Part shown: one piece after another, positions 3,569 to 32,441 of the stretch
Layout of the letters: each line of letters opens with the position of its first letter
How positions within the stretch are numbered: the first letter of the stretch is position 1
Virus record (IMG/VR): IMGVR_UViG_2537561930_000012
Strand: one strand, 5' to 3'
From: a virus
Taxonomy: Duplodnaviria > Heunggongvirae > Uroviricota > Caudoviricetes
Length of the DNA stretch: 33,214 bases
Program-made: the position numbers and the translations under genes
The notes under the pieces: model-generated
Seen by the model: the letters and a program-made list of their open reading frames with translations, nothing else
What the model was told of the DNA's origin: nothing
Databases searched by the model: none

Positions 3569-3631
3569 GTCACTGACCGGAACAGATAAACCTGTCCGTG
3601 GGCAGAAACCGATAAATCCTGATAAATATCC

Positions 3632-4599: not shown

Positions 4600-4779
4600 G
4601 TGGTGATGGGGGTCATGAGGGACATGGCAACTGATGATAAAAGCAGAAACAACTTCGCAGGGTGCTGACGATGCCGCAAAAATCATCGCGGTATGCCGGG
4701 GCATCAGACATATACTGACGCCAGTTGCATGGATTATTTGTACTGCACTGGTTGCATACACAACAATTTATTTAAACAG

Positions 4780-4866
4780 ATGAGTGCTGATTTTATTCGG
4801 GCAACGGCCTTTGCAATTCGCCTTGTGGCGGTCGCTGTTCTGGTCTGGGCAATCCGTTGGTGGTGA
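4780..4866 (+). CDS. Hypothetical small hydrophobic peptide (28 aa), paralogous to the 4456-4599 ORF; stop abuts the Rz start
   Basis: MSADFIRATAFAIRLVAVAVLVWAIRWW; stop TGA at 4864-4866 lies one base before the Rz ATG at 4868. Confidence 0.3.
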   Translation: MSADFIRATAFAIRLVAVAVLVWAIRWW

Positions 4867-4867
4867 T

Positions 4868-5335: not shown

Positions 5336-5356
5336 CTGGAGAAAAAACACGAATCT

Positions 5357-5719
5357 GTGGTTTTTACTGAGCGCGGTGTACACGGTGGAACATATGGCGG
5401 GAAGTTTGTTGCTTATGATTATGCAGCATGGCTAAACCCCGGATTTAAATATGCAGCCTATAAAGTCCTGGATGACTACTTCACCGGAGAACTTCAGCAT
5501 CGCAACAGCTTAAGTGCGCAGCTCAATATGAAGTGTCATGAGTTTGATCAGAAAAAAGATATGGCGAGCTTCTGTGGACAAGGGCTGGCGGCATGGCGCT
5601 ATACGAAGCCAGTGTTGGTCGCTGAGATTAACTCCCTGGCTAACCAGCTGCAGATAACGATCCCCGGGCTGTCCGGTATTTGCCGGTATGAAATTACCGG
5701 AAGGCGCGGTCGTTACTGA
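5357..5719 (+). CDS. Hypothetical protein with KilA-N-like motif; probably an N-terminally truncated remnant
   Basis: 120-aa ORF (GTG start) with GTYGGKFVAYDYAAWLNPGF resembling the KilA-N core; frame is closed just upstream by the Rz stop. Confidence 0.3.
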   Translation: MVFTERGVHGGTYGGKFVAYDYAAWLNPGFKYAAYKVLDDYFTGELQHRNSLSAQLNMKCHEFDQKKDMASFCGQGLAAWRYTKPVLVAEINSLANQLQITIPGLSGICRYEITGRRGRY

Positions 5720-6182
5720 GTAACAGCAGGCATTACAGCAGCCCTTCACTGAGGGGCTGCGATAATGTGAGGAATAAAAAACCGGCAGGGGAAATCCATT
5801 GAAGATTTGCCGGTGGCAAAAGATGGCCATGCTTTTAACCTTAGTAGCAGAGTTACGGAGTTCAACAACGACCGTCGCCGTTATCTTGCTGAAAGGCGTT
5901 TCAATGATTTTCATCAATTTATTCATCAGCAATGGTGATAATCACTCTCATTTTGGCGGGTCCTTCCGGTGGGGTGGCCTGCCACGGGGCGGGAGCGTCG
6001 CGGAAAAAGGCTAGTTTTTGCATTTCCATGGTGGCGGCAGCATGTTTGGTAATTTATTGATAATTAAAAGTTATTTCTCTTTTCAGCTGTACAATATTTT
6101 TTTCTCCCTGTCATTAGACTCGTTTGCAATTAATTGAAATATATAAATAAACCTGATTTTCACCTGCCAGATGGAGTTGCTT

Positions 6183-6710
6183 ATGTCAAATGTGAGCGGG
6201 ATCGGTGATGCTTATTACTGGAGTGTTTTTAAAATCGCCGAGGCCTTTGGGCTTCACCGGGACACAGTAAAAAAACGGCTCCTCGCGGCCAACACTCCTG
6301 TGGCTGCGACTGTCAGGGGGAACCCCGTTTACGCCCTGCAGCATGTCGGGCCTGCCCTGTTTAGTGTGAAGCATGAGGCAGCAGACTCTGTTCATGATCC
6401 ATCCCGTATGGAGCCGAAAGAGAGAAAGGACTGGTACCAGTCGGAAAATGAAAGGATCAAGTTGGAAAAGGAGCAGCGAAAACTCATCCCCGTTGATGAA
6501 GTAGTCATCGTCTATTCGTCCATGAGAAAGGCTGTCGTCCAGGTTCTGGAGACAATTCCGGATGTTCTTGAACGCGATTGCGCCCTGACTCCTCAGGCCG
6601 TTGGCGTTGTACAGCAGGCCATTGATGACCTGCGATACACTCTTCAGGAAAAATCCTACGAGGCTTGTGCTGCTGAATTAATTCCTGATGAGGAAGGAGA
6701 GAGTCTCTAG
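6183..6710 (+). CDS. Terminase small subunit (Nu1-like, N-terminal HTH)
   Basis: ORF 6171-6710; ATG 6183 has better SD spacing (GGAG at 6173-6176); immediately upstream of the large terminase. Confidence 0.65.
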   Translation: MSNVSGIGDAYYWSVFKIAEAFGLHRDTVKKRLLAANTPVAATVRGNPVYALQHVGPALFSVKHEAADSVHDPSRMEPKERKDWYQSENERIKLEKEQRKLIPVDEVVIVYSSMRKAVVQVLETIPDVLERDCALTPQAVGVVQQAIDDLRYTLQEKSYEACAAELIPDEEGESL

Positions 6711-6718
6711 GAGGAATA

Positions 6719-8818: not shown

Positions 8819-9027
8819 ATCAGAATGATATTGAAGCCATGATTCAGCGTTATACGGAAGCTGAAATGGCGGTGCTGGACGGAAAATCCGTCACTTTTAA
8901 TGGTCAGCAGATGACCATGGAAAACTTATCTGAGATCCGGCAGGGGCGGCAGGAGTGGGAGCGCCGCCTTGCGGCTCTGATTACACGACGACGTGGGCAT
9001 CCCGGGTACCGGCTGGCGAGGTTCTGA
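8815..9027 (+). CDS. W: Head-tail connector / head completion protein gpW-like
   Basis: About 70-aa ORF ending RRRGHPGYRLARF; start overlaps terminase stop (ATGA) and its stop overlaps the portal start. Confidence 0.7.
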   Translation: MNQNDIEAMIQRYTEAEMAVLDGKSVTFNGQQMTMENLSEIRQGRQEWERRLAALITRRRGHPGYRLARF

Positions 9028-10502
9028 TGGCAATTCTTGATGATGTGATTGGCGTTTTTTCACCAGGATGGAAAGCGGCAAGGCTGCGTTCCCGTGCGGT
9101 GATCCAGGCTTATGAGGCCGTAAAAACGACGCGGACACACAAAGCCCGACGGGAGAACCGAACTGCCGACCAGTTAAGCCAGTACGGGGCCGTGTCGTTA
9201 CGTGAGCAGGCCCGTTACCTTGATAACAACCACGATCTGGTCATTGGTGTATTTGACAAGCTGGAAGAACGGGTGGTGGGGAAAAACGGGATTATTGTCG
9301 AGCCACATCCGGTATTACGCAATGGGGCCATTGCCCGTGACCTGGCTGCGGAGATACGTACCCGATGGAGTGAATGGTCTGTCAGTCCGGAGGTCACCGG
9401 GCAGTTTACCCGTCCGATGCTGGAACGTCTGATGCTGCGTACCTGGCTGCGCGATGGTGAGGTGTTTGCCCAGATGGTTTCCGGGCGCATAAACAGCCTG
9501 ACGCCTTCTGCCGGTGTTCATTTCTGGCTGGAGGCGCTCGAGCCGGACTTTATTCCCATGACCAGTGATGAGAGCAACAGGCTGAATCAGGGCGTGTTTG
9601 TTGATGACTGGGGGCGTCCCGAAAAATATCTGGTGTATAAAAGTCGTCCTGTATCCGGACGGCAGATGGAAACCAAAGAAGTGGATGCAGAGCGAATGCT
9701 GCATCTTAAATTTGTTCGCCGTCTGCACCAGATGCGCGGGACGTCTTTATTGTCCGGTGTGCTGATCCGCCTCAGCGCCCTGAAAGAGTATGAAGATTCT
9801 GAGCTGACTGCAGCAAGGGTCGCCGCTGCTCTGGGGATGTACATCCGGAAAGGCGACGGACAGAGCTATGAAACGGATGGTAATGACAGCAAGGAGAATG
9901 AACGCGAGCTTACCATTCAGCCAGGCATTATTTACGACGATCTGAAACCCGGCGAAGAAATCGGAATGGTGAAGTCGGATCGCCCAAATCCTAACCTTGA
10001 AACTTTTCGTAATGCTCAGTTGCGTGCCGTGGCGGCGGGCAGTCGTCTGAGTTTTTCCAGTACAGCGCGCAACTATAACGGCACTTACAGCGCCCAGCGT
10101 CAGGAGCTGGTTGAATCCACTGATGGCTACCTGATCCTGCAGGACTGGTTTATTGGTGCCGTCACCCGCCCGATGTATCGTGCCTGGCTGAAACAGGCTG
10201 TGGCATCCGGTGTTATCAGGCTACCCCGCGATCTTGACCGTTCTTCACTGTATACCGCGGTGTATTCCGGACCGGTGATGCCGTGGATTGACCCTGTTAA
10301 GGAGGCTGAGGCCTGGAAAATCCAGATTCGTGGTGGAGCGGCGACAGAATCAGACTGGGTACGTGCAGGTGGTCGTAATCCGGATGATGTCAAACGTCGG
10401 CGCAAGGCCGAAATTGATGAAAACCGCAAGCTGGACCTGGTATTTGATACCGATCCGGCCAGTGATAAAGGAGGCAGCAGTGCCGCAACGAAACGACAGT
10501 AG
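9027..10502 (+). CDS. B: Portal protein (lambda gpB family)
   Basis: ATG at 9027 overlapping gpW stop; about 491 aa; position between W and head protease/capsid. Confidence 0.85.
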   Translation: MAILDDVIGVFSPGWKAARLRSRAVIQAYEAVKTTRTHKARRENRTADQLSQYGAVSLREQARYLDNNHDLVIGVFDKLEERVVGKNGIIVEPHPVLRNGAIARDLAAEIRTRWSEWSVSPEVTGQFTRPMLERLMLRTWLRDGEVFAQMVSGRINSLTPSAGVHFWLEALEPDFIPMTSDESNRLNQGVFVDDWGRPEKYLVYKSRPVSGRQMETKEVDAERMLHLKFVRRLHQMRGTSLLSGVLIRLSALKEYEDSELTAARVAAALGMYIRKGDGQSYETDGNDSKENERELTIQPGIIYDDLKPGEEIGMVKSDRPNPNLETFRNAQLRAVAAGSRLSFSSTARNYNGTYSAQRQELVESTDGYLILQDWFIGAVTRPMYRAWLKQAVASGVIRLPRDLDRSSLYTAVYSGPVMPWIDPVKEAEAWKIQIRGGAATESDWVRAGGRNPDDVKRRRKAEIDENRKLDLVFDTDPASDKGGSSAATKRQ

Positions 10503-12507
10503 CCGCAGTACACCGACGACCAGTCCGAAGAATAATTCCTGGTTCAGGATGCAGGCAGGTCACCAGAGTGACGCGGATATTTATATTTATGACGAGATTG
10601 GTTTCTGGGGTGTTACAGCGAAGCAGTTTATCAGTGATCTGAATGCACTGGGCGATATCACCCACATTAATCTCCATATTAATTCACCGGGTGGCGATGT
10701 CTTTGAAGGCATCGCCATTTTTAATGCACTGAAAACACATGGTGCGTCCATTACCGTTTATGTCGACGGTGTGGCGGCGTCAATGGCGTCGGTCATTGCG
10801 ATGGTGGGAAACCCGGTCATTATGCCGGAAAACTCCTTCATGATGATTCATAAACCATTTGGCTTTACGGGCGGTGATGCGGAGGACATGCGCACCTATG
10901 CCGACCTGCTCGATAAAGTTGAGGCGGTTCTGTTACCCGCTTATGCACAGAAAACCGGGAAAACCACCGATGAAATTGCTGCCATGCTGGCGGATGAGAC
11001 CTGGATGTCCGGTGCCGAATGTCTGGCACATGGATTTGCTGATCAGGTGACGCCAGCCGTTAAGGCAATGGCATGTATTCAGTCAAAACGTACAGAGGAA
11101 TTTAAAAAGATGCCGGAATCCATTCGAAACATGATTACTCCGCCACGCAACAGTGCTCCACGCGTACAGGATGATGAACCTGCAGCCTCCCGGACGCCAG
11201 TGCAGGCAGCAGCACCCGTGGTGGATGAAAACAGTATCCGTGCGCAGGTACTGGCAGAGCAAAAAGCGCGTGTAAACGGTATTAATGATCTGTTTGCCAT
11301 GTTTGGCGGGCGTTATCAGACGCTGCAGGCTCAGTGTCTTGCCGATCCTGAATGTTCGCTGGAGCAGGCCCGCGAAAAGCTGTTGAACGAGATGGGGCGC
11401 GAGTCCACGCCATCCAATAAAAATACACCGGCTCATATTTATGCCGGTAACGGTAATTTTGTGGGGGACGGGATCCGCCAGGCGCTGATGGCGCGTGCCG
11501 GATTTGAAAAAACCGAACGTGATAATGTCTACAACGGGATGACCCTGCGTGAATATGCCCGTATGTCACTGACTGAACGGGGTATTGGGGTTTCCGGTTA
11601 TAACCCGATGCAGATGGTCGGTGCGGCGTTCACACACAGTACGTCTGACTTCGGTAATATTCTGCTGGATGTTGCGAACAAAGCCATTCTGCAGGGCTGG
11701 GAAGATGCTCCTGAAACCTATGAACAGTGGACGCGGAAAGGTCAGTTGTCTGATTTTAAAATTGCCCATCGTGTGGGTATGGGGGGCTTCAGTGCTCTGC
11801 GTCAGGTGCGTGAAGGGGCGGAATATAAATACGTCACCACCGGAGATAAACAGGCCACTATTGCACTGGCGACCTATGGCGAGCTGTTCAGTATCACCCG
11901 TCAGGCCATTATCAATGATGATCTGAATATGCTGACCGATGTCCCGATGAAACTGGGCCGTGCGGCGAAATCCACTATTGCCGATCTGGTTTATGCCATT
12001 CTGACGTCTAACCCGAAAATCTCCACAGATAATGTAAGTCTGTTCGATAAAGCGAAACATGCAAACGTACTGGAGAGCGCTGCAATGGACGTGGCATCGC
12101 TGGATAAAGCCCGCCAGTTGATGCGCGTTCAGAAAGAGGGGGAGCGTCATCTGAATATTCGTCCTGCGTTCGTACTGGTACCGACGGCGATGGAGTCTGT
12201 TGCTAACCAGGTCATTCGCTCCTCAAGTGTCAAGGGGGCTGACATTAACGCCGGTATTATTAACCCGGTGAAAGATTTTGCGACCGTTATTGCAGAGCCT
12301 CGTCTTGATGATAACAGCCAGACCACCTTCTACCTGGCTGCGTCAAAAGGCTCCGATACGATTGAAGTGGCTTATCTCAACGGTGTGGATACGCCATATA
12401 TTGATCAGATGGAGGGCTTCAGTGTGGATGGCGTGACAACGAAAGTGCGTATTGACGCCGGTGTCGCGCCAGTTGATCACCGCGGTCTGGTGAAATGTAC
12501 GGCGTAA
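10480..12507 (+). CDS. Prohead protease (ClpP/S49-like) fused to major capsid protein
   Basis: GTG start at 10480 with SD AAAGGAGG five nt upstream (alternative ATG 10549); N-terminal protease-like region (NSPGGDVFEGIAIFNAL...SMASVIAM), long C-terminal capsid-like domain; terminator follows. Confidence 0.7.
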   Translation: MPQRNDSSRSTPTTSPKNNSWFRMQAGHQSDADIYIYDEIGFWGVTAKQFISDLNALGDITHINLHINSPGGDVFEGIAIFNALKTHGASITVYVDGVAASMASVIAMVGNPVIMPENSFMMIHKPFGFTGGDAEDMRTYADLLDKVEAVLLPAYAQKTGKTTDEIAAMLADETWMSGAECLAHGFADQVTPAVKAMACIQSKRTEEFKKMPESIRNMITPPRNSAPRVQDDEPAASRTPVQAAAPVVDENSIRAQVLAEQKARVNGINDLFAMFGGRYQTLQAQCLADPECSLEQAREKLLNEMGRESTPSNKNTPAHIYAGNGNFVGDGIRQALMARAGFEKTERDNVYNGMTLREYARMSLTERGIGVSGYNPMQMVGAAFTHSTSDFGNILLDVANKAILQGWEDAPETYEQWTRKGQLSDFKIAHRVGMGGFSALRQVREGAEYKYVTTGDKQATIALATYGELFSITRQAIINDDLNMLTDVPMKLGRAAKSTIADLVYAILTSNPKISTDNVSLFDKAKHANVLESAAMDVASLDKARQLMRVQKEGERHLNIRPAFVLVPTAMESVANQVIRSSSVKGADINAGIINPVKDFATVIAEPRLDDNSQTTFYLAASKGSDTIEVAYLNGVDTPYIDQMEGFSVDGVTTKVRIDAGVAPVDHRGLVKCTA

Positions 12508-12530
12508 ACGTCGCAGACAACAACTCTGAT

Positions 12531-12550
12531 GGCCCGTAAGGGCTTTTTTT
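12531..12550 (+). terminator. Intrinsic terminator/attenuator after the capsid gene
   Basis: gccc-gtaa-gggc hairpin followed by T7. Confidence 0.4.
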
Positions 12551-12593
12551 GTACCTGAAATCAGCCCCTGAACGGGGCAGTGCGGAGACAGTT

Positions 12594-12917
12594 ATGGCAA
12601 AGAATTTTGTAGAAGAAGGAAAAACGGTGGCGATTGTTGCCAGTGCAGCCATCAGCAGCGGAGATCTGGTGCTGGTGGGGGATGTTTTTGCGGTGGCGCT
12701 GACCGATATTCCACAGGGTGAAACAGGCGACGGCATGACCGAAGGTGTGTTTATGCTGCCTAAGCTGAAAACGGATGACATGAAAACGGGTAAGAAGGTT
12801 TATCTGAAGTCCGGAAAAGTTCAGTTGACTAACAGCGGCTCTGATCCGCTGGTCGGGGTTGTCTGGGCAGATGCCGGAACCAGTGCAGAAGAAGTGCCGG
12901 TAAAACTCAATGTCTGA
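12594..12917 (+). CDS. Small head-associated protein (DUF2190-like; decoration or head-completion candidate)
   Basis: 107-aa ORF from ATG 12594 between capsid and FII-like genes. Confidence 0.45.
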   Translation: MAKNFVEEGKTVAIVASAAISSGDLVLVGDVFAVALTDIPQGETGDGMTEGVFMLPKLKTDDMKTGKKVYLKSGKVQLTNSGSDPLVGVVWADAGTSAEEVPVKLNV

Positions 12918-13185
12918 TCCCTTTTCCCGGCTGGCAGCGCGTATGGATGCGATCACGGTCAGAAAGATGGGAAAGACAGCCTCGATTAATGATGTCGATA
13001 TGACTGTGATCCCGGGAGAAACACTGGCAGAGCTGAATGCTCTGTCCGGACCTGCGGTCTCTCTGGTGGTGTTTTCTTCGGGATACCGCCCACGGCGCGG
13101 GGATCGCGTTGTTTATGACGGACAACAATGGACGGTCACACGGCATGAACGTTTTAACGGTAAGCCAATGATCTTTATTGAGTAA
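12910..13185 (+). CDS. Head-tail joining protein (lambda gpFII-like)
   Basis: 91-aa ORF; C-terminal RRGDRVVYDGQQWTV resembles the FII RRGD motif; directly upstream of gpZ. Confidence 0.55.
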   Translation: MSDPFSRLAARMDAITVRKMGKTASINDVDMTVIPGETLAELNALSGPAVSLVVFSSGYRPRRGDRVVYDGQQWTVTRHERFNGKPMIFIE

Positions 13186-13196
13186 AGAGGTGTGGG

Positions 13197-13775
13197 ATGA
13201 AGGGGCTTGAGAATGCCATCCGTAATCTGAACAGCCTTGATACCCGTATGGTGCCACAGGCCAGCGCATGGGCGATAAACCGTGTGGCACAGAAAGCGGT
13301 CTCGGTCGCCACCCGGCAGGTTGCCGGGAATACCGTTGCGGGAGATAACCAGGTGAAAGGGATCCCCCTGAAACTGGTACGTCAGCGTGTCCGGGTGTTT
13401 AAAGCCAGTCCGTCAGGAAAAATGACGGCCAGGATCCGCGTTAACCGGGGCAATCTGCCCGCTATTAAGCTGGGGACAGCCCGGGTCAGACTGGCCCGGC
13501 GTGGTGGAAAACTGCAGTACCGTGGCAGTGTGCTGAAGGTGGGTAAATATCTTTTCCGGGATGCGTTTATTCAGCAACTGGCGAATGGTCGCTGGCATGT
13601 GATGCGGCGTATTGATGGCAAAAATCGTTACCCCATTGATGTGGTGAAAGTCCCGCTGTCCGGACCGCTGACACAGGCATTTGAAGATGCCCGCGACCGC
13701 ATTATTGCTGCGGAAATGCCGAAACAGCTGGGGTATGCACTGAAACAACAACTGAGGTTATGGCTGACCCGATGA
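13197..13775 (+). CDS. Z: Tail completion protein gpZ
   Basis: 192 aa, colinear with lambda Z (NGRWHVM.R..GKNRYPIDVVK.P, ELGYAL..QLR). Confidence 0.85.
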   Translation: MKGLENAIRNLNSLDTRMVPQASAWAINRVAQKAVSVATRQVAGNTVAGDNQVKGIPLKLVRQRVRVFKASPSGKMTARIRVNRGNLPAIKLGTARVRLARRGGKLQYRGSVLKVGKYLFRDAFIQQLANGRWHVMRRIDGKNRYPIDVVKVPLSGPLTQAFEDARDRIIAAEMPKQLGYALKQQLRLWLTR

Positions 13776-14173
13776 ACCGACATACACAAATCCGCCAGGC
13801 CGTACTGGCACGCCTTCGGGAACAGTGTGGAGACAGCGCCACGTTTTTTGACGGGCTTCCGGCATTTATTGATGCGCAGGAACTGCCTGCCGTGGCGGTG
13901 TGGCTGAGTGATGCTCAGTACACCGGAAAAATGACGGATGAAGATGACTGGCAGGCTGTTCTGCATATTGCTGTCTTCATCCGGGCACAGGCACCGGATT
14001 CAGAGCTGGATATGTGGATGGAGAGCACCATTTTCCCGGCTCTGAATGATATACCGGCACTTTCCGGACTCATCGACACCCTGATCCCTCTCGGTTTTAA
14101 CTATCAACGTGATAATGAGATGGCCACCTGGGCGATGGCGGAAATCACGTACCAGATCACGTACACGAATTAA
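13772..14173 (+). CDS. U: Tail terminator protein gpU
   Basis: ATG 13772 overlapping Z stop; ATFFDG, PAVAVWLSDAQYTG, PDSELDMWMES motifs as in lambda U. Confidence 0.85.
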   Translation: MNRHTQIRQAVLARLREQCGDSATFFDGLPAFIDAQELPAVAVWLSDAQYTGKMTDEDDWQAVLHIAVFIRAQAPDSELDMWMESTIFPALNDIPALSGLIDTLIPLGFNYQRDNEMATWAMAEITYQITYTN

Positions 14174-14184
14174 AGGAGGTGGCA

Positions 14185-14928
14185 ATGACCACACCAAATC
14201 CACTGGCAAAAACGAAAGGTGCGGGAACGACGTTCTGGATGTACACCGGCAAGGGCGATGCGTTTGCGAACCCTTTATCGGACACTGACTGGCTGCGTCT
14301 TGCGATGGTGAAGGATCTGCAACCTGGCGAAATGACCGCTGATGCAGAAGATGACACTTATCTCGATGATGAAGATGCAGACTGGAAAACGACAACCCAG
14401 GGGCAGAAATCCGTCGGTGATACTTCGGCGACGCTGGCCTGGCGTCCGGGTGACAGCGGGCAGAAAAAACTGGTTCAGTTGTTCGACTCCGGTGAAGTCT
14501 GCGCGTTTCGTATCAAATATCCCAACGGCACTGTTGATGTTTTCCGTGGCTGGCTGAGCTCACTGGGTAAAACCATTGCCTCAAAAGACGTGATGACCCG
14601 CACAGTGAAAATCAGCGGTGTGGGGCGTCCGCATCTGGCAGAGGAAGGCACTGAAACAGTGAGCGTTACCGGGCTGACGGTGGCACCAGCATCTGCCAGT
14701 GTAAAAGTGGGAGCAACCACCACGCTGACCTTTACAGTAAAACCTGACGGAGCCAGTGACAAAGCGATCAGTGTACATTCGACAGATCCACAGACTGCCA
14801 CGGTGACCCTGAACGGGCTTGTGGCCACGGTGAAAGGCGTGAAGCAGGGCAGTGTCAGCATTGTGGGCATGACTTCTGACGGCGATTTTGTGGCCGTGGC
14901 TGCGGTGGCTGTCAGCGCCGCAGGTTAA
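14185..14928 (+). CDS. V: Major tail tube protein gpV (with C-terminal Ig-like Big_2 domain)
   Basis: SD AGGAGG then ATG 14185; near-lambda sequence (KGAGTT.W.Y.G.GD..ANPLSD.DW, FPNGTVDVFRGW). Confidence 0.9.
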   Translation: MTTPNPLAKTKGAGTTFWMYTGKGDAFANPLSDTDWLRLAMVKDLQPGEMTADAEDDTYLDDEDADWKTTTQGQKSVGDTSATLAWRPGDSGQKKLVQLFDSGEVCAFRIKYPNGTVDVFRGWLSSLGKTIASKDVMTRTVKISGVGRPHLAEEGTETVSVTGLTVAPASASVKVGATTTLTFTVKPDGASDKAISVHSTDPQTATVTLNGLVATVKGVKQGSVSIVGMTSDGDFVAVAAVAVSAAG

Positions 14929-14948
14929 CAGGACGATACTCATCATTT

Positions 14949-14972
14949 GCCCCGGTTATCCGGGGCTTTTTT
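14949..14972 (+). terminator. Intrinsic terminator/attenuator after gpV
   Basis: 7-bp GC stem gcccccgg.ttat.ccggggc followed by T6. Confidence 0.45.
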
Positions 14973-14985
14973 GCAGGTGGAGAAC

Positions 14986-15375
14986 ATGATGTTTCTGAAA
15001 CAGGGCACGTTTAATTATGAAAAACAGTCCGTGGTGCTCAGTGAGCTGTCCGGGCTGCAGAGAATTGAATATCTGGCGTTTGTTCAGCAGCGAACGGCAA
15101 AGTTTGATGCCGGGGAGGGAGAACTGCCGGAGGCTGAACGACAGATTGCTTTTCTGCGGATGGGGATGGATATCAATGCCTGGCTGGTTTCCCGCTCACT
15201 GTGGAATGCGGATCAGTCTAAGGATGTAGAGACGCTTTGCGCATCCGTTATTACAACATGGTCGTATGATGCCCTGGGTGCGGGGGCGGAGATGGTTCTG
15301 TCGCTGAGCGGTATGGGGGCCATTGATAATGCCGGGGATGATGAGCATGAGGCGCTGACGCCGGAAAAGTCCTGA
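14986..15375 (+). CDS. G: Tail assembly chaperone gpG
   Basis: Start MMFLK at 14986, after the V terminator (track ORF begins earlier at 14947); lambda G-like LSELSGLQRIEYLA. Confidence 0.8.
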   Translation: MMFLKQGTFNYEKQSVVLSELSGLQRIEYLAFVQQRTAKFDAGEGELPEAERQIAFLRMGMDINAWLVSRSLWNADQSKDVETLCASVITTWSYDALGAGAEMVLSLSGMGAIDNAGDDEHEALTPEKS

Positions 15376-15713
15376 CGCGGGAAATGCAGTTTGTCATGCG
15401 GCTTGCCCGGGAGTTCCGGCGGGCAGACTGGCGGCGGATGCTGTCGGAAATGTCGGCCACTGAGCTTGGTGAGTGGGGCGATTATTTCCGGATGCAGAGC
15501 TTCAGTGATGTGTGGATGGATGCGCAGTTTGCCTCGCTGAAGGCATTGATCGTGAGAATGGTGTCCGGCAGCAGTGATGCTGCGGTGGCTGATTTCAGCC
15601 TTTTACCGGAAGAGAACGGGATACCGGAGCGAACGGACGAAGAACTGATGCATCTTGGAGAAGGTATTTCCGGAGGTGTGCGTTATGGACCAGATAGCCA
15701 ACCTGGTCATTGA
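14986..15713 (+). CDS. T: Tail assembly chaperone gpGT, predicted product of programmed -1 ribosomal frameshift near the 3' end of G
   Basis: T-like ORF in the -1 frame is open from 15351 and overlaps the end of G; slippery-like GGAAAAG at 15363-15369. Confidence 0.55.
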
Positions 15714-18700
15714 TTTGGGGATTGATGCGGCAGAGTTTAAAAATGAAATTCCCCGTATCAAAAACCTTCTGAATGGTGCAGCCAGCGATGCAGAACGGTC
15801 TTCTGCCCGTATGCAGCGTTTTATGGAGCGTCAGACTCAGGCCGCCCGGCAGACAACGCAGGCGGCTTCTTCGGCTGCAACAGCCGCCTCCGTCCATGCG
15901 CAGACGGTGGAGAAGAACGCACAGGCTCATGAACGCATGGCCCGCGAGGTGGAGAAAACCCGCCAGCGCATGGAGGCGCTGAGCCAGAAAATGCGCGATG
16001 AACAGGCGCAGGCCATGGCTCTGGCGGAGGCTCAGGATAAAGCGGCTGCTGCGTTTTATCGTCAGATTGACAGTGTGAAACAGGCCAGTGCGGGGCTGCA
16101 GGAATTACAGCGTATTCAGCAGCAGATCCGACAGGCCAGAAACAGTGGCGGGATTGGTCAGCAGGATTATCTGGCGCTGATTTCTGAGGTTACGGCGAAA
16201 ACCCGTGTTCTTACACAGGCTGAGGAAGAGGCTACCCGACAGAAAGTGGCGTTTATCCGTCAGCTTAAAGAGCAGGCAACCCGCCAGAATCTTTCATCTT
16301 CTGAGTTGCTTCGTGCTAAGGCAGCCCAGCTGGGGGTAAGCAGTGCTGCAGAAGTGTATATCCGCAAAATGGAGCAGGCAGGAAAAGCCACGCATTCGCT
16401 GGGTCTGAAAAGTGCAGCAGCCCGCCAGGAGATAGGCGTTCTGATAGGTGAACTGGCCCGCGGCAATTTAGGGGCGCTGAGGGGATCCGGGATAACGCTG
16501 GCTAACCGTGCCGGATGGATAGACACACTGATGTCACCGAAAGGCATGATGCTTGGCGGGGTTATTGGCGGTATTGCCGCGGCCGTCTATGGTCTGGGTA
16601 AAGCCTGGTATGACGGTCAGAAGGAGGGGGAAGAATTTAACCGCCAGTTGTCGCTGACGGGGCATTATGCCGGAGTTACTGCCGGGCAGCTGTGGACGCT
16701 CAGTCGTGCTATTTCCGGGAATGGTATCACGCAACATGCTGCAGCCGGTGCGCTGGCTCAGGTGGTGGGGAGTGGTGCATTTCGTGGAAACGATATCGGT
16801 ATGGTGGCGAGAGCTGCCGCACAGATGGAGCGATCGGTTGGCCAGTCGGTCAGCGATACCATAAATCAGTTTAAGCGGCTGAAGGATGATCCTGTAAATG
16901 CCGCGAAGGCTCTGGACAATGAGCTGCATTTTCTTACTGCCACTCAGCTTGAGCAGATACGCGTCCTTGGGGAGCAGGGGCGGTCCAGTGATGCTGCACG
17001 GATAGCCATGTCTGCACTGGCAGAGGAAACCGGTCGGCGTACTGCGGATATTGATAATAACCTCAATGCGCTTGGCAGTACGCTGAAGTATCTGTCTGAT
17101 TTGTGGAGTCGTTTCTGGGATGCGGCCATGAATATTGGTCGTGAAGACTCGCTGGATGAACAGATTGCCGCTTTACAGGAGAAAGTGTCGCGGGCGAAAA
17201 GACTCCCCTGGACGGCATCATCTTCTCAGGTTGAATACGATCAGCAGCGTCTTAACGATCTTCAGGAGAAAAAACGCCAGAAGGATTTGCAGGATGCAAA
17301 AGAGCAGGCAGAGCGGAATTATCAGGAGCAACAGAAACGCCGTAATGCTGAAAATGCTGCACTGAACCGGATGAATGAAACGGAAGCAGCACGACATCAG
17401 CGTGAAATTGCGCGTATTAATGCCATGCAGTACGCCGATCAGGCTGTCAGGGATGCGGCGATACAACGTGAAAATGAACGTTACGAGAAAGCCCTGGCAT
17501 CCGGTAAGAAAAAAACACGCGAAACCCGTAATGATGAGGCCACCCGGTTATTGCTGCAGTACAGCCAGCAACAGGCACAGGTGGAAGGACAGATTGCTGC
17601 TGCAAGACAGTCAGCAGGCATTGCCACTGAAAAGATGACAGAAGCGCATAAACAGCTTCTGGCTCTGCAGCAGCGCATCAGCGATCTGGACGGGAAAAAA
17701 CTGACGGCAGATGAAAAGAGTGTGCTGGCCCGTAAAGATGAACTGATTCAGGCACTGACGCTGCTGGATGTAAAACAGCAGGAGCTTCAGAAACAGACGG
17801 CACTCAACGATCTGAAGAAAAAAACAATTCAGCTGACCAGTCAACTGGCTGAAGAAGAGCGCGCTCAGCGTCAGCAACATGACCTGGATATCGCCACGGT
17901 GGGTATGGGTGATCAGCAGCGGCAGCGATATCAGGTACAACTGAGCCTTCGCCAGAAATACCAGCAACAGCTGGAGCAGTTGAGGCGGGATAGTGAGCAG
18001 AAAGGGACATATAACACGGATGACTACAGAAAGGCCGAGCAGGCGCTGACGGAGAGCCTGAACAGGCAACTGAATGAGAATCGCCGTTACTGGCAACAGC
18101 TTGAAATTGCTCAGGGTAACTGGAAAAACGGTGCCATGCGGGCGTTTCAGAATTTCACGGCAGATGCGGATAATGCGGCAGGCACTGCGGAGCAGATGCT
18201 TACAGCGGCATTTAACAGTGCAGGTAATGCACTGGCTACATTCTGTACCACCGGAAAACTGAACTTCAAATCTTTTACCGCCTCGCTCCTTTCTGATCTG
18301 GCAAAAATCATGGCTCAGATGTCCATGATGCAGGCAGTTAAGGGGATTGGTTCGGCGTTTGGCTGGGGGAGTGCAGCAACTGCCAGTGTGACGCCCAATG
18401 CTGATGGTGGTGTTTATCAGTCTGCTGATTTGAGTCGCTACAGTGGCACGGTGGTTAACCGTCCGACGTTTTTTGCTTTTGCAAAAGGTGCAGGTGTGAT
18501 GGGGGAAGCTGGGCCTGAAGCCATTCTGCCTCTGCGTCGTGGTGCTGACGGTAAGCTGGGGGTTGTGGCGGATATTGGTGGTTCAGGTATGGCGATGTTT
18601 GCCCCGCAGTACAACATCGAGATCAATAACGATGGCACGAACGGGCAGATAGGTCCGGCTGCCCTGAAGGTGGTTTATGACCTCGGGAAAAAAGCAGCAG

Positions 18701-18759
18701 CGGACTTTATGCAACAGCAGGCCCGTGATGGTGGTCGGTTAAGTGGAGCATATCGGTAA
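15685..18759 (+). CDS. H: Tail tape measure protein gpH
   Basis: About 1024 aa from ATG 15685 (SD GGAGGTG); long coiled-coil Q/A/R-rich region; position between G/T and M. Confidence 0.9.
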   Translation: MDQIANLVIDLGIDAAEFKNEIPRIKNLLNGAASDAERSSARMQRFMERQTQAARQTTQAASSAATAASVHAQTVEKNAQAHERMAREVEKTRQRMEALSQKMRDEQAQAMALAEAQDKAAAAFYRQIDSVKQASAGLQELQRIQQQIRQARNSGGIGQQDYLALISEVTAKTRVLTQAEEEATRQKVAFIRQLKEQATRQNLSSSELLRAKAAQLGVSSAAEVYIRKMEQAGKATHSLGLKSAAARQEIGVLIGELARGNLGALRGSGITLANRAGWIDTLMSPKGMMLGGVIGGIAAAVYGLGKAWYDGQKEGEEFNRQLSLTGHYAGVTAGQLWTLSRAISGNGITQHAAAGALAQVVGSGAFRGNDIGMVARAAAQMERSVGQSVSDTINQFKRLKDDPVNAAKALDNELHFLTATQLEQIRVLGEQGRSSDAARIAMSALAEETGRRTADIDNNLNALGSTLKYLSDLWSRFWDAAMNIGREDSLDEQIAALQEKVSRAKRLPWTASSSQVEYDQQRLNDLQEKKRQKDLQDAKEQAERNYQEQQKRRNAENAALNRMNETEAARHQREIARINAMQYADQAVRDAAIQRENERYEKALASGKKKTRETRNDEATRLLLQYSQQQAQVEGQIAAARQSAGIATEKMTEAHKQLLALQQRISDLDGKKLTADEKSVLARKDELIQALTLLDVKQQELQKQTALNDLKKKTIQLTSQLAEEERAQRQQHDLDIATVGMGDQQRQRYQVQLSLRQKYQQQLEQLRRDSEQKGTYNTDDYRKAEQALTESLNRQLNENRRYWQQLEIAQGNWKNGAMRAFQNFTADADNAAGTAEQMLTAAFNSAGNALATFCTTGKLNFKSFTASLLSDLAKIMAQMSMMQAVKGIGSAFGWGSAATASVTPNADGGVYQSADLSRYSGTVVNRPTFFAFAKGAGVMGEAGPEAILPLRRGADGKLGVVADIGGSGMAMFAPQYNIEINNDGTNGQIGPAALKVVYDLGKKAAADFMQQQARDGGRLSGAYR

Positions 18760-19088
18760 TGGAGACGTTTCACTGGAAAGTGCGCCCGGATATGAATGTG
18801 GTATCAGAGCCGAAAGTGGTGACAGTGAAGCTGGGCGATGGTTATGAACAGCGTCGTGCGGCGGGACTGAATAACCAGTTGTCGACTTACAGCGTGACGA
18901 TACGTGTTCGTAAATGTGAACACCCATCTTTAAAAGCCTTTCTGGAACGGCACGGTGGCGTCCGCGCATTTCAGTGGACGCCACCTTATGACTGGAAACC
19001 GATTAGGGTGGTTTGTCGTAAATGGTCGGCAAGCGTGGGGGCGCTGTGGGTAACCATAACGGCAGATTTTGAACAGGTCGTGGCATAG
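18759..19088 (+). CDS. M: Minor tail protein gpM
   Basis: 109 aa, lambda M-like; start overlaps H stop (TAATG). Confidence 0.9.
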   Translation: METFHWKVRPDMNVVSEPKVVTVKLGDGYEQRRAAGLNNQLSTYSVTIRVRKCEHPSLKAFLERHGGVRAFQWTPPYDWKPIRVVCRKWSASVGALWVTITADFEQVVA

Positions 19089-19097
19089 GAGGCTCTG

Positions 19098-19796
19098 ATG
19101 CAGGATATTCCACAGGAAACACATCATGAGACGACACGCCTCACTCAGTCAGCCCAGGTGGTGCTCTGGGAAATCGATCTGACAGTGGTCGGTGGAGAAC
19201 GTTATTTTTTCTGTAATGAGCAGAACGAAAAAGGTGAGCCGGTCACCTGGCAGGGGCGACAGTATCAGGCGTATCCCATTCAGGGGACGGGATTTGAACT
19301 GAACGGCAAGGGCAGTGCTGCCCGTCCGACACTGACGGTTTCTAACCTGCACGGCATGGTCACCGGGATGGCGGAAGACCTGCAGAGTCTGGTCGGAGGA
19401 ACGGTGGTCCGGCGTAAGGTTTACGCCCGTTTTCTGGATGCGGTGAACTTCGTCAACGGAAACAGTGACGCCGATCCGGAGCAGGAGGTGATCAGCCGCT
19501 GGCGCATCGAGCAGTGCAGTGAACTGAGTGCGGTGAGTGCCTCTTTTGTACTGTCCACGCCGACGGAAACGGACGGTGCCGTTTTTCCGGGACGTATCAT
19601 GCTGGCCAACACCTGCACCTGGACCTATCGCGGTGATGAGTGCGGTTATCACGGTCTGGCGGTCGCGGATGAATATGACCAGCCAACGTCCGATATCACG
19701 AAGGATAAATGTAGCAAATGCCTGAGCGGTTGTAAGTTCCGCAATAACGTCGGCAACTTTGGCGGCTTCCTTTCCATTAACAAACTTTCGCAGTAA
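19098..19796 (+). CDS. L: Minor tail protein gpL
   Basis: 232 aa, lambda L-like, with C-terminal Cys cluster (CSKCLSGC). Confidence 0.9.
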   Translation: MQDIPQETHHETTRLTQSAQVVLWEIDLTVVGGERYFFCNEQNEKGEPVTWQGRQYQAYPIQGTGFELNGKGSAARPTLTVSNLHGMVTGMAEDLQSLVGGTVVRRKVYARFLDAVNFVNGNSDADPEQEVISRWRIEQCSELSAVSASFVLSTPTETDGAVFPGRIMLANTCTWTYRGDECGYHGLAVADEYDQPTSDITKDKCSKCLSGCKFRNNVGNFGGFLSINKLSQ

Positions 19797-19801
19797 ATCC
19801 C

Positions 19802-20545
19802 ATGACACAGACAGAATCAGCGATTCTGGCGCACGCCCGGCGATGTGCGCCAGCGGAATCGTGCGGCTTCGTGGTGAGAACGCCGGAGGGGGAAAGATAT
19901 TTTCCCTGCGTGAATATCTCCGGTGAGCCGGAGGCGTATTTCCGGATGTCGCCGGAGGACTGGCTGCGGGCAGAGATGCAGGGTGAGATTGTGGCGCTGG
20001 TCCACAGCCACCCCGGTGGTCTGCCCTGGCTGAGTGAGGCTGACAGGCGGCTGCAGGTGCAGAGCGATTTGCCTTGGTGGCTGGTCTGCCGGGGTGAGAT
20101 TCATAAATTCCGCAGTGTGCCGCATCTCACCGGGCGGCGCTTTGAGCACGGGGTGACGGACTGTTACACGCTGTTCCGGGATGCTTATCATCTGGCGGGG
20201 ATTGAGATGCCGGATTTTCATCGCGGGGATGACTGGTGGCGTCACGGTCAGAATCTCTATCTGGATAATCTGGAGGCCACAGGGCTGTATCAGGTGCCGT
20301 TGTCAGCGGCGCAGCCGGGCGATGTGCTGCTGTGCTGTTTTGGTTCATCGGTGCCGAATCATGCCGCCATTTACTGTGGTGACGGCGAGCTGCTGCACCA
20401 TATTCCTGAACAACTGAGCAAACGAGAGAGGTATACCGACAAATGGCAGCGACGCACACACTCCCTCTGGCGTCACCGGGCATGGCACGCATCTGCCTTT
20501 ACGGGGATTTGCAACGATTTGGCCGCCGCATCGACCTTCGTGTGA
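19802..20545 (+). CDS. K: Tail assembly protein gpK (MPN/JAMM plus NlpC/P60 domains)
   Basis: 247-aa ORF with HSHPGG (JAMM-like) and a Cys/His NlpC/P60-like C-terminal region (DCYTLF ... NHAAIY); overlaps start of I. Confidence 0.85.
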   Translation: MTQTESAILAHARRCAPAESCGFVVRTPEGERYFPCVNISGEPEAYFRMSPEDWLRAEMQGEIVALVHSHPGGLPWLSEADRRLQVQSDLPWWLVCRGEIHKFRSVPHLTGRRFEHGVTDCYTLFRDAYHLAGIEMPDFHRGDDWWRHGQNLYLDNLEATGLYQVPLSAAQPGDVLLCCFGSSVPNHAAIYCGDGELLHHIPEQLSKRERYTDKWQRRTHSLWRHRAWHASAFTGICNDLAAASTFV

Positions 20546-21091
20546 AAACGGGGGCCGAAGCCATCCGGGCGCTGGCCACACAGCTCCCGGCGTTTCGTCA
20601 GAAACTGAATGACGGCTGGTATCAGGTGCGCATTGCCGGGCGTGATGCAGGTGAAACCGAATTATCTGCCCGTCTTAATGAGCCGCTGGCAAATGGTGCC
20701 GTGATCCATATCGTGCCGCGTCTGGCGGGAGCTAAAAGTGGCGGTGTGTTTCAGGTGGTGCTGGGGGCGGCGTTGATTGCGGTGGCATGGTGGAACCCTG
20801 TGGGCTGGCTGGGTGCCGCGGCTGTATCGGGCATGTATGCGGCAGGGGCCAGTATGATCCTGGGCGGTGTGGCGCAGATGCTGGCACCGAAAGCCAGAAC
20901 GTCCCCGTACACAGACAACGGATAACGGCAAACAGAACACCTATTTCTCCTCACTGGATAACATGGTTGCCCAGGGCAATGTTCTGCCGGTTCTGTACGG
21001 TGAAATGCGCGTGGGGTCGCGGGTGGTCTCTCAGGAGATCAGCACGGCAGACGAAGGGGATGGTGGTCAGGTTGTGGTGATTGGTCGCTGA
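20443..21091 (+). pseudogene. I: Tail assembly protein gpI, interrupted by an apparent +1 frameshift near 20902 (N-terminal 160-aa ORF 20443-20925; C-terminal conserved segment continues in another frame to 21091)
   Basis: N-terminal frame ends ...LAPKARTSPYTDNG*; the conserved C-terminus ...TTDNGKQNTYFSSLDNMVAQGNVLPVLYGEMRVGSRVVSQEISTADEGDGGQVVVIGR is in the +1 frame; junction at a CCCC run. Confidence 0.6.
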
Positions 21092-21150
21092 TGAAAAACG
21101 TTTATGTGAAACCGCCTCCGGGCGGTTTTGTCGTTTATGGAGCGTGAGGA

Positions 21151-24548
<3,398 letters not shown>

Positions 24549-24566
24549 ATTTTATAACCCAGAACG

Positions 24567-24592
24567 GGCGTCAGAAATGACGCCTTTTTTAT
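24567..24592 (+). terminator. Intrinsic terminator after J
   Basis: 7-bp stem ggcgtca-gaaa-tgacgcc followed by TTTTTTATT. Confidence 0.5.
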
Positions 24593-24614
24593 TGCAGAAA
24601 AGCGAGAGGTAATT

Positions 24615-25214
24615 ATGCGTAAACTTTATGCCGCCATTTTGTCCGCAGCCATTTGTCTGGCCGTATCCGGTGCGCCTGCATGGGCGTCTGAACATCAGTC
24701 CACGCTGAGCGCGGGGTATCTTCATGCCCGGACGAACGTTCCCGGCAGTGATGATCTGAACGGGATTAACGTGAAATACCGTTATGAGTTTACGGACACA
24801 CTGGGGATGGTGACGTCGTTCAGCTATGCAGGAGACAAGAATCGCCAGCTGACCCGTTACAGCGATACCCGCTGGCATGAAGATTCCGTGCGTAACCGCT
24901 GGTTCAGCGTGATGGCGGGGCCGTCTGTGCGCGTGAATGAATGGTTCAGCGCGTATGCGATGGCGGGTGTGGCTTACAGCCGTGTGTCGACTTTCTCCGG
25001 GGATTATCTGCAGGTGACCGACAATACGGGGAAAACGCACGACGTGCTGACCGGAAGTGATGACGGTCGCCACAGCAACACGTCTCTGGCGTGGGGGGCT
25101 GGCGTGCAGTTTAACCCGACCGAATCCGTGGCCATTGATATTGCTTATGAAGGCTCCGGCAGTGGTGACTGGCGCACTGACGGTTTCATCGTGGGTGTCG
25201 GTTATAAATTCTGA
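24615..25214 (+). CDS. lom: Outer membrane beta-barrel protein Lom (Ail/Lom family)
   Basis: 199-aa ORF with signal peptide (AVSGAPAWA), alternating beta-strand pattern and C-terminal ...GVGYKF; flanked by terminators. Confidence 0.9.
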   Translation: MRKLYAAILSAAICLAVSGAPAWASEHQSTLSAGYLHARTNVPGSDDLNGINVKYRYEFTDTLGMVTSFSYAGDKNRQLTRYSDTRWHEDSVRNRWFSVMAGPSVRVNEWFSAYAMAGVAYSRVSTFSGDYLQVTDNTGKTHDVLTGSDDGRHSNTSLAWGAGVQFNPTESVAIDIAYEGSGSGDWRTDGFIVGVGYKF

Positions 25215-25240
25215 TTAGCCAGGTAACACAGTGTTATGAC

Positions 25241-25268
25241 AGCCCGCCGGTTCAGGCGGGCTTTTTTG
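25241..25268 (+). terminator. Intrinsic terminator after lom
   Basis: 8-bp stem agcccgcc / ggcgggct with 6-nt loop followed by T6. Confidence 0.5.
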
Positions 25269-25278
25269 TGGGGTGAAT

Positions 25279-28200
25279 ATGGCAGTAAAGATTTCAGGTG
25301 TACTGAAAGACGGCACAGGAAAACCGGTACAGAACTGCACAATCCAGCTGAAAGCAAAACGTAACAGCACCACGGTGGTGGTGAACACGCTGGCCTCAGA
25401 AAATCCGGATGAAGCCGGGCGTTACAGCATGGACGTTGAGTACGGTCAGTACAGCGTTATTCTGTTGGTGGAAGGCTTCCCGCCGTCACATGCCGGGACC
25501 ATTACCGTGTATGAAGATTCCCGACCCGGTACGCTGAATGATTTTCTCGGTGCCATGACTGAGGATGATGCCCGTCCGGAGGCACTGCGCCGTTTTGAGC
25601 TGATGGTGGAAGAGGTGGCGCGTAACGCGTCCGTGGTGGCACAGAACACGGCAGCCGCGAAGAAGTCAGCCAGTGATGCCAGCACATCAGCCCGTGAGGC
25701 GGCAACCCATGCGACTGATGCTGCAGGCTCAGCACGCGCAGCCAGCACGTCAGCCGGACAGGCCGCGTCGTCGGCTCAGTCAGCGACTTCCAGCGCAGGA
25801 ACGGCATCAACAAAGGCCACTGAAGCATCAAAAAGTGCTGCCGCTGCAGAGTCCTCAAAAAGCGCGGCAGCTACCAGTGCCAGTGCCGCGAAAACGTCAG
25901 AAACGAATGCGGCAGCGTCACAAAAATCTGCAGCCACTTCTGCATCCGCCGCGACCACAAAGGCGTCAGAAGCTGCCACCTCAGCCCGGGATGCGGCGGC
26001 CTCAAAAGAGGCAGCGAAATCATCAGAAACGAACGCATCATCAAGCGCCAGTAGTGCCGCTTCCTCGGCAACGGCGGCAGGAAATTCCGCGAAGGCGGCA
26101 AAGACGTCCGAGACGAACGCCAGGTCTTCTGAAACGGCAGCGGGACAGAGTGCCTCAGCTGCGGCAGGCTCAAAAACAGCGGCTGCGTCGTCTGCCAGTG
26201 CCGCGTCAACAAGTGCCGGGCAGGCCTCAGCCAGTGCCACCGCCGCCGGAAAATCGGCAGAAAGTGCTGCATCGTCCGCTTCAACAGCCACAACGAAGGC
26301 TGGCGAAGCCGCTGTACAGGCCAGTGCAGCAGCGAGGGCTGCTTCCGCAGCGAAGACATCCGAAACGAACGCGAAAGCGTCGGAAACCAGCGCAGAATCC
26401 TCAAAAACGGCTGCCGCATCGTCCGCCAGTTCGGCGGCGTCATCGGCATCATCTGCGTCTGCTTCAAAAGATGAGGCGACCAGACAGGCGTCAGCAGCGA
26501 GGGGCAGCGCCACGACGGCATCCACGAAGGCGACAGAGGCTGCTGGCAGTGCGGCAGCGGCAGCACAGAGCAAAAGTACGGCAGAATCCGCAGCAACGCG
26601 CGCTGAGACAGCGGCAAAACGTGCAGAGGATATTGCATCCGCCGTGGCGCTTGAGGATGCAAGTACGACGAAAAAGGGGATAGTACAGCTCAGCAGTGCG
26701 ACCAACAGTACGTCTGAAACGCTGGCGGCAACGCCAAAGGCAGTAAAATCAGCCTATGACAATGCAGAGAAACGTCTGCAGAAAGACCAGAACGGCGCTG
26801 ATATACCCGATAAGGGACGCTTCCTGAACAACATTAACGCGGTCAGTAAAACAGACTTTGCTGATAAGCGTGGTATGCGTTATGTGCGGGTTAACGCTCC
26901 TGCAGGTGCAACATCTGGAAAATATTACCCTGTTGTTGTTATGCGTTCTGCTGGCTCAGTAAGCGAACTGGCATCAAGGGTCATTATCACCACGGCAACG
27001 CGAACCGCAGGCGATCCGATGAATAACTGCGAGTTTAACGGATTTGTTATGCCTGGTGGCTGGACTGACAGGGGGCGTTATGCTTATGGCATGTTCTGGC
27101 AATATCAAAACAATGAACGAGCCATTCACTCAATAATGATGAGTAATAAGGGCGATGATTTGCGCTCTGTGTTCTATGTTGATGGCGCTGCTTTCCCTGT
27201 TTTTGCGTTTATCGAAGATGGCCTGTCAATATCCGCACCTGGTGCTGATCTCGTTGTTAATGATACGACCTATAAGTTTGGGGCAACAAATCCGGCGACT
27301 GAATGTATCGCGGCGGACGTTATCCTTGATTTTAAGAGTGGGCGTGGTTTTTATGAGTCTCATTCGTTAATCGTTAACGATAACTTGTCGTGCAAAAAAC
27401 TTTTTGCCACAGACGAAATTGTAGCGCGTGGTGGTAATCAGATTCGAATGATAGGTGGGGAGTATGGTGCATTATGGCGTAATGATGGCGCTAAAACTTA
27501 CCTGCTGCTTACCAATCAAGGTGATGTTTATGGTGGCTGGAATACATTAAGACCGTTTGCTATTGATAACGCAACCGGCGAACTGATTATTGGAACCAAA
27601 CTGTCCGCAAGTCTGAACGGTAATGCATTAACAGCAACAAAGCTGCAAACGCCAAGACTGGTTTCTGGTGTTGAGTTTGATGGTTCCAAAGATATTACTT
27701 TAACCGCTGCGCATGTGGCTGCTTTTGCCAGAAGGGCAACTGATACATATGCCGATGCGGATGGTGGCGTTCCCTGGAATGCCGAATCAGGCGCTTACAA
27801 TGTCACCCGCTCTGGCGACAGCTATATTCTGGTTAACTTCTATACCGGAGTCGGAAGTTGCCGGACCCTGCAGATGAAGGCGCATTACAGAAATGGAGGT
27901 CTGTTCTACCGTTCCTCAAGAGATGGCTATGGTTTTGAGGAAGACTGGGCAGAAGTTTATACCTCGAAAAATCTTCCACCAGAAAGCTACCCAGTCGGTG
28001 CACCAATCCCGTGGCCATCAGATACCGTTCCGTCTGGCTATGCCCTGATGCAGGGGCAGACTTTTGACAAATCTGCATACCCGAAACTTGCAGCGGCTTA
28101 TCCGTCAGGCGTTATTCCTGATATGCGTGGCTGGACGATTAAGGGCAAGCCCGCCAGTGGTCGTGCCGTATTGTCTCAGGAACAGGACGGCATTAAATCG

Positions 28201-31697: not shown

Positions 31698-32441
31698 ATG
31701 GCAACTACATGTTCAGTTATATTGATTTTGGAGTCCTTTGATGTTTATTTCGGAAAAGAGAGTGTGTTTCTAGAGAAAGGTTCATCTGTACTTGTCGACT
31801 CTAGCTCTAGAGATTTTTTCCTGACATATCCTGAAAGAGTGATAGTGGCGGATTTTGGCGCTGAGTTTATTAGTCGCTATTTGAAAGCTAATAACTTAAG
31901 GGATATTTCTGATTGTAGGGAATATCCATCTTATTTAAAAATAAACTTTGCTGACTTCAGTTTAATTAAAGGATTAATTAGTTGGGCTAATCACTGTGCT
32001 GAATACATAGAAATTTTTGATGAGTCTATTGCTTTTACATGTCTCTCTGCATTTTCTTCTGAAAAACAATTTGGAGTATTTCTGTTTGAATGTTTGAAAA
32101 GCACAGAGGCTAAAGTTAAAACGATTATTCATACGGATTTATCTGCACCATGGCGTCTTAAGGATATATCATCAAGATTATATCTCAGCGAAAGTTTACT
32201 AAAGAGGAAATTGAAAGAAGAGGGGGTATCATTCAGTAAGATCATACTTGATGAGAGGATGCAAATGGCTGAATATTTACTCAGCACTCGTTGTTATCCT
32301 ATTAGTAAAGTAGCTAAGGTCTGTGGTTATGCCAGTGTCTCATACTTTACTTATGTATTTAGACGTTATTTTGGTGTTTCTCCAAGTCAATACTCTCAGA
32401 GGAGTTCAGAAAGTAAAATTCTTACTCACCAGGGAATCTGA
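31698..32441 (+). CDS. AraC/XylS-family transcriptional regulator (AppY/YdeO/GadX-like)
   Basis: About 247 aa (ATG 31698; track ORF from GTG 31689); C-terminal dual-HTH AraC signature (WRLKDISSRLYLSESLLKRKLKEEGVSFSKIILDERMQMA...CGYASVSYFTYVFRRYFGVSPSQY); AT-rich gene. Confidence 0.75.
   Translation: MATTCSVILILESFDVYFGKESVFLEKGSSVLVDSSSRDFFLTYPERVIVADFGAEFISRYLKANNLRDISDCREYPSYLKINFADFSLIKGLISWANHCAEYIEIFDESIAFTCLSAFSSEKQFGVFLFECLKSTEAKVKTIIHTDLSAPWRLKDISSRLYLSESLLKRKLKEEGVSFSKIILDERMQMAEYLLSTRCYPISKVAKVCGYASVSYFTYVFRRYFGVSPSQYSQRSSESKILTHQGI

Follow-up and report, generated by a model that had tools for sequence, protein, structure and literature searches.

The window analyzed here, the whole 33,214-nt stretch of IMG/VR virus record IMGVR_UViG_2537561930_000012, comes from AQFH01000008.1, a 203-kb draft contig of E. 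coli 201600.1 (GCA_000356745.2) in which each record position equals the window position plus 100. The DNA of this contig was 100% identical to window positions 11151–32137, and the protein ENA24214.1 from the same strain exactly matched the 328-aa N-terminal fragment of J encoded at 21151–22137. AQFH01000008.1 begins inside the prophage, approximately 100 nt 5′ of the window and near a DUF968 gene, which is why the integrase, immunity and replication regions are absent from it. To the right of the tail-fiber and tail-fiber assembly genes lies an AraC-family regulator gene (31698–32441), and in other strains the same AraC-type gene is followed by ybhB, bioA, bioBFCD and uvrB, which led us to place the prophage at the classical lambda attachment site. 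We found no paper, platform or assembler for strain 201600.1 in the literature.

Within the tail-tip cluster, gene I is positioned between K and J, as expected for a gene encoding gpI, and the last 103 nt of K overlap the start of I just as they do in lambda (lambda K/I overlap 14773–14875). The features around gene I are as follows.

19802–20545, + strand: intact gene K, encoding a C40/NlpC-P60 plus JAB tail-tip protein (ORF list, gene calls and Pfam families on the contig)
20443–20925, + strand: 5′ part of gene I, 160 aa, with an ATG start and a TAA stop at 20923–20925 (ORF list, PF06805)
20901, + strand: inserted G in the context AAC-G-TCCCC, equal to AQFH01000008.1 position 21001 (comparison with the nearest intact alleles)
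20903–21091, + strand: what is left of gene I, codons 154–215 plus stop, read in the +1 frame (matches the plug and beta-strand region of lambda gpI)
21092–21150, + strand: I-J spacer, 59 nt (sequence comparison)

The extra base in gene I

Gene I as read does not form one uninterrupted reading frame. Its 160-aa product comprises a PF06805 (Lambda_tail_I) domain at residues 14–97, which scored 87.5 bits against a cut-off of 23.8 in both the truncated and the repaired protein, followed by two hydrophobic helices, seven out-of-frame residues (SPYTDNG) and a stop seven codons past the insertion. In the +1 frame, an ORF ending at TGA 21089–21091 continues the protein and encodes ...PRTQTTDNGKQNTYFSSLDNMVAQGNVLPVLYGEMRVGSRVVSQEISTADEGDGGQVVVIGR. 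Fifty-seven of the last 62 I codons in this frame specify residues identical to lambda gpI, and lambda gpI and four other intact relatives all share the final 57 residues of the continuation, which takes the +1 continuation far beyond chance. These observations confirmed the view of the first-pass annotation that I is split, with a frame that stops at 20925 and a conserved gpI C-terminus that runs on in the +1 frame to 21091.

The nearest intact alleles, those of TUM9757 and YF-1, read GCCAGAAC-TCCCCGTACACAG where the window reads GCCAGAACGTCCCCGTACACAG, and, apart from that one base, match the window throughout the vicinity of the lesion. In addition, a single T preceded the CCCC in 120 of the 120 IMG/VR matches listed with the TUM9757-type allele. 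Taken together, these alleles identify the extra base as G20901, and not as T20902 or a fifth C. At the I site, the record with the extra G therefore reads ACGTCCCCGT, and the same site without it ACTCCCCGT; the corresponding longer k-mers are CAGAACGTCCCCGTACAC in the record, CAGAACTCCCCGTACAC in the intact TUM9757 type and CAGGACGTCCACGGCAG in the type carried by E. coli S1-IND-01-A (S1-IND). The first-pass annotation had proposed one extra nucleotide near 20902 at a CCCC run, and a one-base insertion is indeed present; the base itself is the G at 20901, a lone G lying 5′ of TCCCC, and the C run is not lengthened, such that the suggested homopolymer error does not apply.

When G20901 was removed in silico, the sequence became exactly the intact allele ACT CCC CGT ACA CAG and encoded a 215-aa I protein with no further decay. 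Exact copies of this repaired protein (including PBQ56407.1) occur on 18 contigs from other E. coli assemblies, where it is annotated as intact: four of these contigs have the 215-aa form and 14 a 182-aa form that uses an internal start; the contigs encoding exactly this gpI differ from the window by approximately 2% at the DNA level. Alignment to intact I genes from lambda and related prophages, which had been recommended as a check, showed one ORF in all of them. Intact relatives have a 648-nt I gene, a spacer of 59–60 nt and then J. In the window, J starts at 21151, leaving a gap of 225 nt after the truncated I ORF versus 59 nt after repair, which bears out the odd gap of 226 bp before J that had been remarked upon earlier. 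The spacer also contains a GC-rich hairpin, AAACCGCC-TCCG-GGCGGTTT, at 21109–21128, followed by TGTCGTTT and kept in all relatives aligned; a simple terminator scan made no call at this hairpin.

The disrupted gene is known from a single record. In an exact-protein look-up across 153 billion gene positions, truncated I, whether taken as 160 aa or as 127 aa, and the shortened J described below were found in AQFH01000008.1 only. Exact DNA pattern searches with a 27-nt string containing the extra G returned 0 matches in GTDB representative genomes, JGI metagenomes and IMG/VR, versus four contigs in GTDB representative genomes, at least 120 in JGI metagenomes and at least 120 in IMG/VR for the same string without the G, that is, more than 240 other contigs with the intact allele and none with the +G allele. 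Among complete E. coli genomes, the best match to the I region was 99.2% identical, and 12 of the 12 best-listed matches were one base shorter than the window. No natural homologue split in the manner of I was found among the relatives compared. Relative to its intact orthologues the gene is thus disrupted, as a pseudogene would be; inheritance of the lesion by related isolates, or further decay in the form of extra stops or non-synonymous drift, was not observed.

Truncated gpI and the two reading frames

Along its full length, the repaired I protein shared 84% identity with lambda gpI, and it was colinear with 8iyk chain I (E = 3e-110, residues 1–215), whereas the match of the unrepaired sequence was spread over two frames. 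PDB entries matching the repaired protein were 8iyk, 8iyl, 8k35, 8xcg and 9e7m. Cryo-EM work has established lambda gpI as a structural part of the virion tail tip (PMC10721106, PMC11101478). Its residues 135–223 assemble as a trimer into a tripod or plug that sits beneath the C-terminal coiled coil of gpH, with three beta-sheet augmentations holding each gpI copy to gpJ (PMC10721106). The plug itself has been assigned to residues 159–175, and the strands that follow it thread the gaps that separate the hub domains of gpJ and shift upon LamB binding (PMC11101478). If the lesion is real, the truncated gpI would thus be predicted to keep its N-terminal domain and hydrophobic helices and to lack the plug and all of the anchoring strands.

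A programmed +1 ribosomal frameshift, or recoding of another kind, could in principle restore full-length gpI: the two I frames overlap by approximately 60 nt (20867–20925), and frameshifting at any point of the overlap would yield an almost normal protein. However, a single I ORF was present in every relative examined, namely the phages mEp460, cdtI, PhiR47_1 and lambda, a number of complete E. coli genomes and over 240 contigs that have the window's own local allele. Inspection of the overlap (20860–20925) revealed no CUU-UGA-C-type motif and no X-XXY-YYZ heptamer, no shift-prone P-site codon lies beside the I stop (GGA-UAA-C), and a recoding signal would not come from a one-off insertion. 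Given the lack of both conservation and a motif, we rejected a programmed frameshift in I and give recoding in general next to no credence. In the same tail module, the tail chaperone genes G and T lie at about 14947–15713, and T is in the −1 frame relative to G across ...CCG GAA AAG TCC TGA CGC GGG AAA TG... (approximately 15355–15390), the place where a G/GT frameshift is expected; its heptamer departs from the canonical lambda G GGA AAG.

A second way to retain function would be for the 160-aa product and a separately started C-terminal peptide (from GTG 20867 or ATG 20963) to replace gpI jointly. The gene caller of the public collection did report a 42-aa ORF at 20963–21091, and in the lambda tail tip structures the N-terminal domain of gpI is not resolved and the C-terminal part is modelled (PMC11101478, PMC10721106). 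On the other hand, neither GTG 20867 nor ATG 20963 is preceded by a convincing ribosome-binding site, a 42-aa product would not include the plug residues, natural gpI homologues are not split in this way, and J is broken too, such that tail function would be lost regardless. We therefore consider a split but functional gpI highly improbable.

A second lesion in gene J and two divergent patches

Gene J, 1.17 kb downstream of the I lesion, carries a frameshift of its own.

21151–22137, + strand: 5′ part of gene J, 328 aa as read, of which about 306 codons are in frame and the rest out of frame (ORF list)
22070–22071, + strand: site of a 1-nt deletion in J (comparison with relatives)
22044–24548, + strand: 3′ part of gene J, 834 aa, with the true J frame running from 22071 to the stop (ORF list)

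The window reads CAGTG-TGCGAT at the deletion site, where the intact 3399-nt J reads CAGTGTTGCGAC, indicating that one T of a TT pair has been lost; relatives have the pattern CAG NNN TGC GAY, with 19 nt between anchors versus 18 in the window. Restoring one T gave a J of 1132 aa with two amino acid differences from that of S1-IND-01-A and no further decay, and nine of the 11 nucleotide differences from S1-IND-01-A in J were synonymous. The deletion was absent from all other loci covering the site (0/84, later 0/191), and the deletion string had no match in IMG/VR. The first-pass annotation had raised the prospect of a tail-defective prophage on account of I, and the I lesion it relied upon is there; it had missed the −1 frameshift at 22070, which alone would make the prophage tail-defective. 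The J frameshift changes how the I lesion should be read, in that there are two private indels in otherwise pristine genes. If both are real, with I and J (at about codon 307 of 1132) broken, the prophage would be predicted to be unable to make a tail tip from its own genes.

As a reference we used the prophage of E. coli S1-IND-01-A, the nearest complete relative; no closer haplotype was found among 5,426 complete E. coli genomes and approximately 270 loci. This prophage has nearly the same late region, but resides at the Qin locus, next to ydfJ. Alignment of window 12150–26765 to S1-IND-01-A contained exactly two indels, the I and J lesions, and alignment of window 1–13052 contained none, so that these were the only two indels in approximately 27 kb. 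Positions 12150–20897 differed by one SNP in 8.7 kb, and 21062–22069 and 22482–24750 were identical. Defined against this single reference, two divergent patches stood out: an I patch at 20898–21061, with 17 differing sites, in which the window equals TUM9757 apart from the G, and a J patch at 22070–22481, with 11 SNPs plus the deletion. The approximately 12 kb around the lesions thus held one SNP outside the two patches versus two indels, and both difference clusters, the only ones present, have an indel at their 5′ edge, a coincidence that we regard as suggestive only. In I, the 5′ 455 nt of the S1-IND-01-A gene and the 3′ part of the TUM9757 gene are identical to the window, and both genes lack the extra G. 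At six of the 11 J patch sites S1-IND-01-A was the odd one out, and the patch consists of a mix of known polymorphisms whose combined haplotype was found nowhere (best match 98.5%). A diversity-peak test, to which we give no weight, placed the J site only at the 91st percentile and is invalid for I, since the loci used had mostly been chosen for carrying the I allele itself.

Two further differences from S1-IND-01-A lie in the early part of the window. The segment at 3470–3615 (146 nt) is replaced in S1-IND-01-A by an unrelated segment of 102 nt and is the only unalignable stretch of the first 13 kb. Between a Q-like antiterminator gene (1431–2252) and the lysis genes, the window encodes a cluster of four tRNA genes at 2396–2705 (anticodons CAT, TTT-Lys, TGT-Thr and TCC-Gly), whereas only three (Ile, Thr and Gly) are annotated at the matching place in S1-IND-01-A, despite its gapless alignment to the window.

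Mutation, recombination or assembly error

The choice posed by the first-pass annotation, between an inactivated gene and a sequence error, was well framed, and we put the odds of a real recent mutation versus an assembly or consensus artefact at about even. The reading we favor, with a probability of roughly 0.48, is that G20901 is a real, very recent and strain-confined unprogrammed one-base insertion in an ordinary lambda-type gpI gene, compounded by the frameshift in J. Translation would leave the I frame after Thr153 and stop seven codons later, and the −1 frameshift at 22070 would compound this lesion, such that the prophage alone would produce no tail tip and would depend for its spread on another lambdoid phage, through complementation or recombination. 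Homopolymer indels are a classic sequencing error, and G20901 lies outside a homopolymer. Moreover, the region of approximately 27 kb has no indels other than those in I and J, which argues against an indel-prone technology. Two lesions in adjacent genes of one functional module are also consistent with selection having relaxed after one of the two genes had been inactivated. Lambdoid prophages of E. coli often have defective minor-tail and host-specificity genes, and can nonetheless be mobilized (PMC2669165).

Several features nevertheless speak against a real mutation. Two indels versus a single SNP outside the patches is an odd ratio for spontaneous mutation, the inserted G copies neither of its neighbors, which is atypical for slippage, and both lesions are private to this record and free of further decay. 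The position of the indels at the patch edges also hints at a problem in joining paralogous prophage alleles or in calling their consensus.

We consider it close to an even chance that such a problem accounts for both lesions, with the real I and J being intact and both indels created in assembling the 2013 draft. The route proposed for I involves two co-resident prophages carrying common alleles, ACGTCCACG-GCAG... and AC-TCCCCGTACACAG..., of a 7-codon variable block: aligners relate these two alleles by paired compensating 1-nt gaps, and a consensus keeping both columns reads ACGTCCCCGTACACAG, one base too long. If two copies were involved, both ACGTCCACGG and ACTCCCCGTAC strings would be expected at the I site. 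In keeping with this route, the window I site equals the TUM9757-type allele (AC-TCCCCGTAC) with the addition of the G that is present there in the S1-IND-type allele (ACGTCCACG-G). The lesions are confined to one draft record, I and J are otherwise pristine, and the only two indels in approximately 27 kb are the 5′ edges of the only two difference clusters (20898–21061 and 22070–22481). Most E. coli carry I and J in multiple copies (median two to three places per genome), which provides a setting for such errors, and the start of the contig inside the prophage shows that repeats troubled the assembly. Yet the contig is unbroken through the whole 30-kb late region, which would be unexpected with a near-identical paralogue, and neither indel falls in a long homopolymer (in I, a G between C and T; in J, one T of TT). 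A two-allele consensus also leaves the J deletion unexplained, as J alleles differ only by substitutions there, and the region contains no other indel.

Recombination between co-resident lambdoid prophages could have left both indels as real footprints, which we deem unlikely. At I, two functional alleles with compensating 1-nt indels would have been joined, or a heteroduplex patchily repaired, inside the 7-codon variable block; at J, the indel would be the edge of a second conversion tract. Were this so, the locus would offer a natural example of mosaic exchange killing phage genes without the usual point mutation.

Whether mutated or misassembled, the locus is ordinary, with a well-known gene carrying a one-base lesion and J a second one. 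Real lesions would mean that the prophage at the attachment site cannot build its own tails and that both I and J call for annotation as pseudogenes; artefactual ones would call for a one-base correction in each of the two genes. In either case, automated calls such as the ‘127-aa tail assembly protein’, the ‘42-aa hypothetical’ and the ‘328-aa host specificity protein J’ describe mere fragments and mislead. The result has little significance past annotation, with the location of each indel at the edge of a divergent patch being of mild interest.

Compared with the lambda system, the window shares the K-I-J order, the 103-nt K/I overlap and an I-J spacer of approximately 60 nt, and differs in that its I gene is broken after the residue equivalent to lambda Thr161; its hydrophobic helix region is eight residues shorter than that of lambda gpI, as it is in the group of mEp460 and cdtI. 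In lambda G/GT, the programmed −1 frameshift occurs at a slippery site and is conserved in every homologue. The split I likewise spans two frames in a tail module of this kind of phage, but is unique to one record and has no slippery site. Another parallel is found in defective E. coli lambdoid prophages such as the Sp prophages of O157 Sakai, which likewise have point defects in minor-tail and host-specificity genes, and for which survival is possible via co-resident phages (PMC2669165). Unlike these, the window displays two 1-nt indels without other decay, in the record of one isolate.
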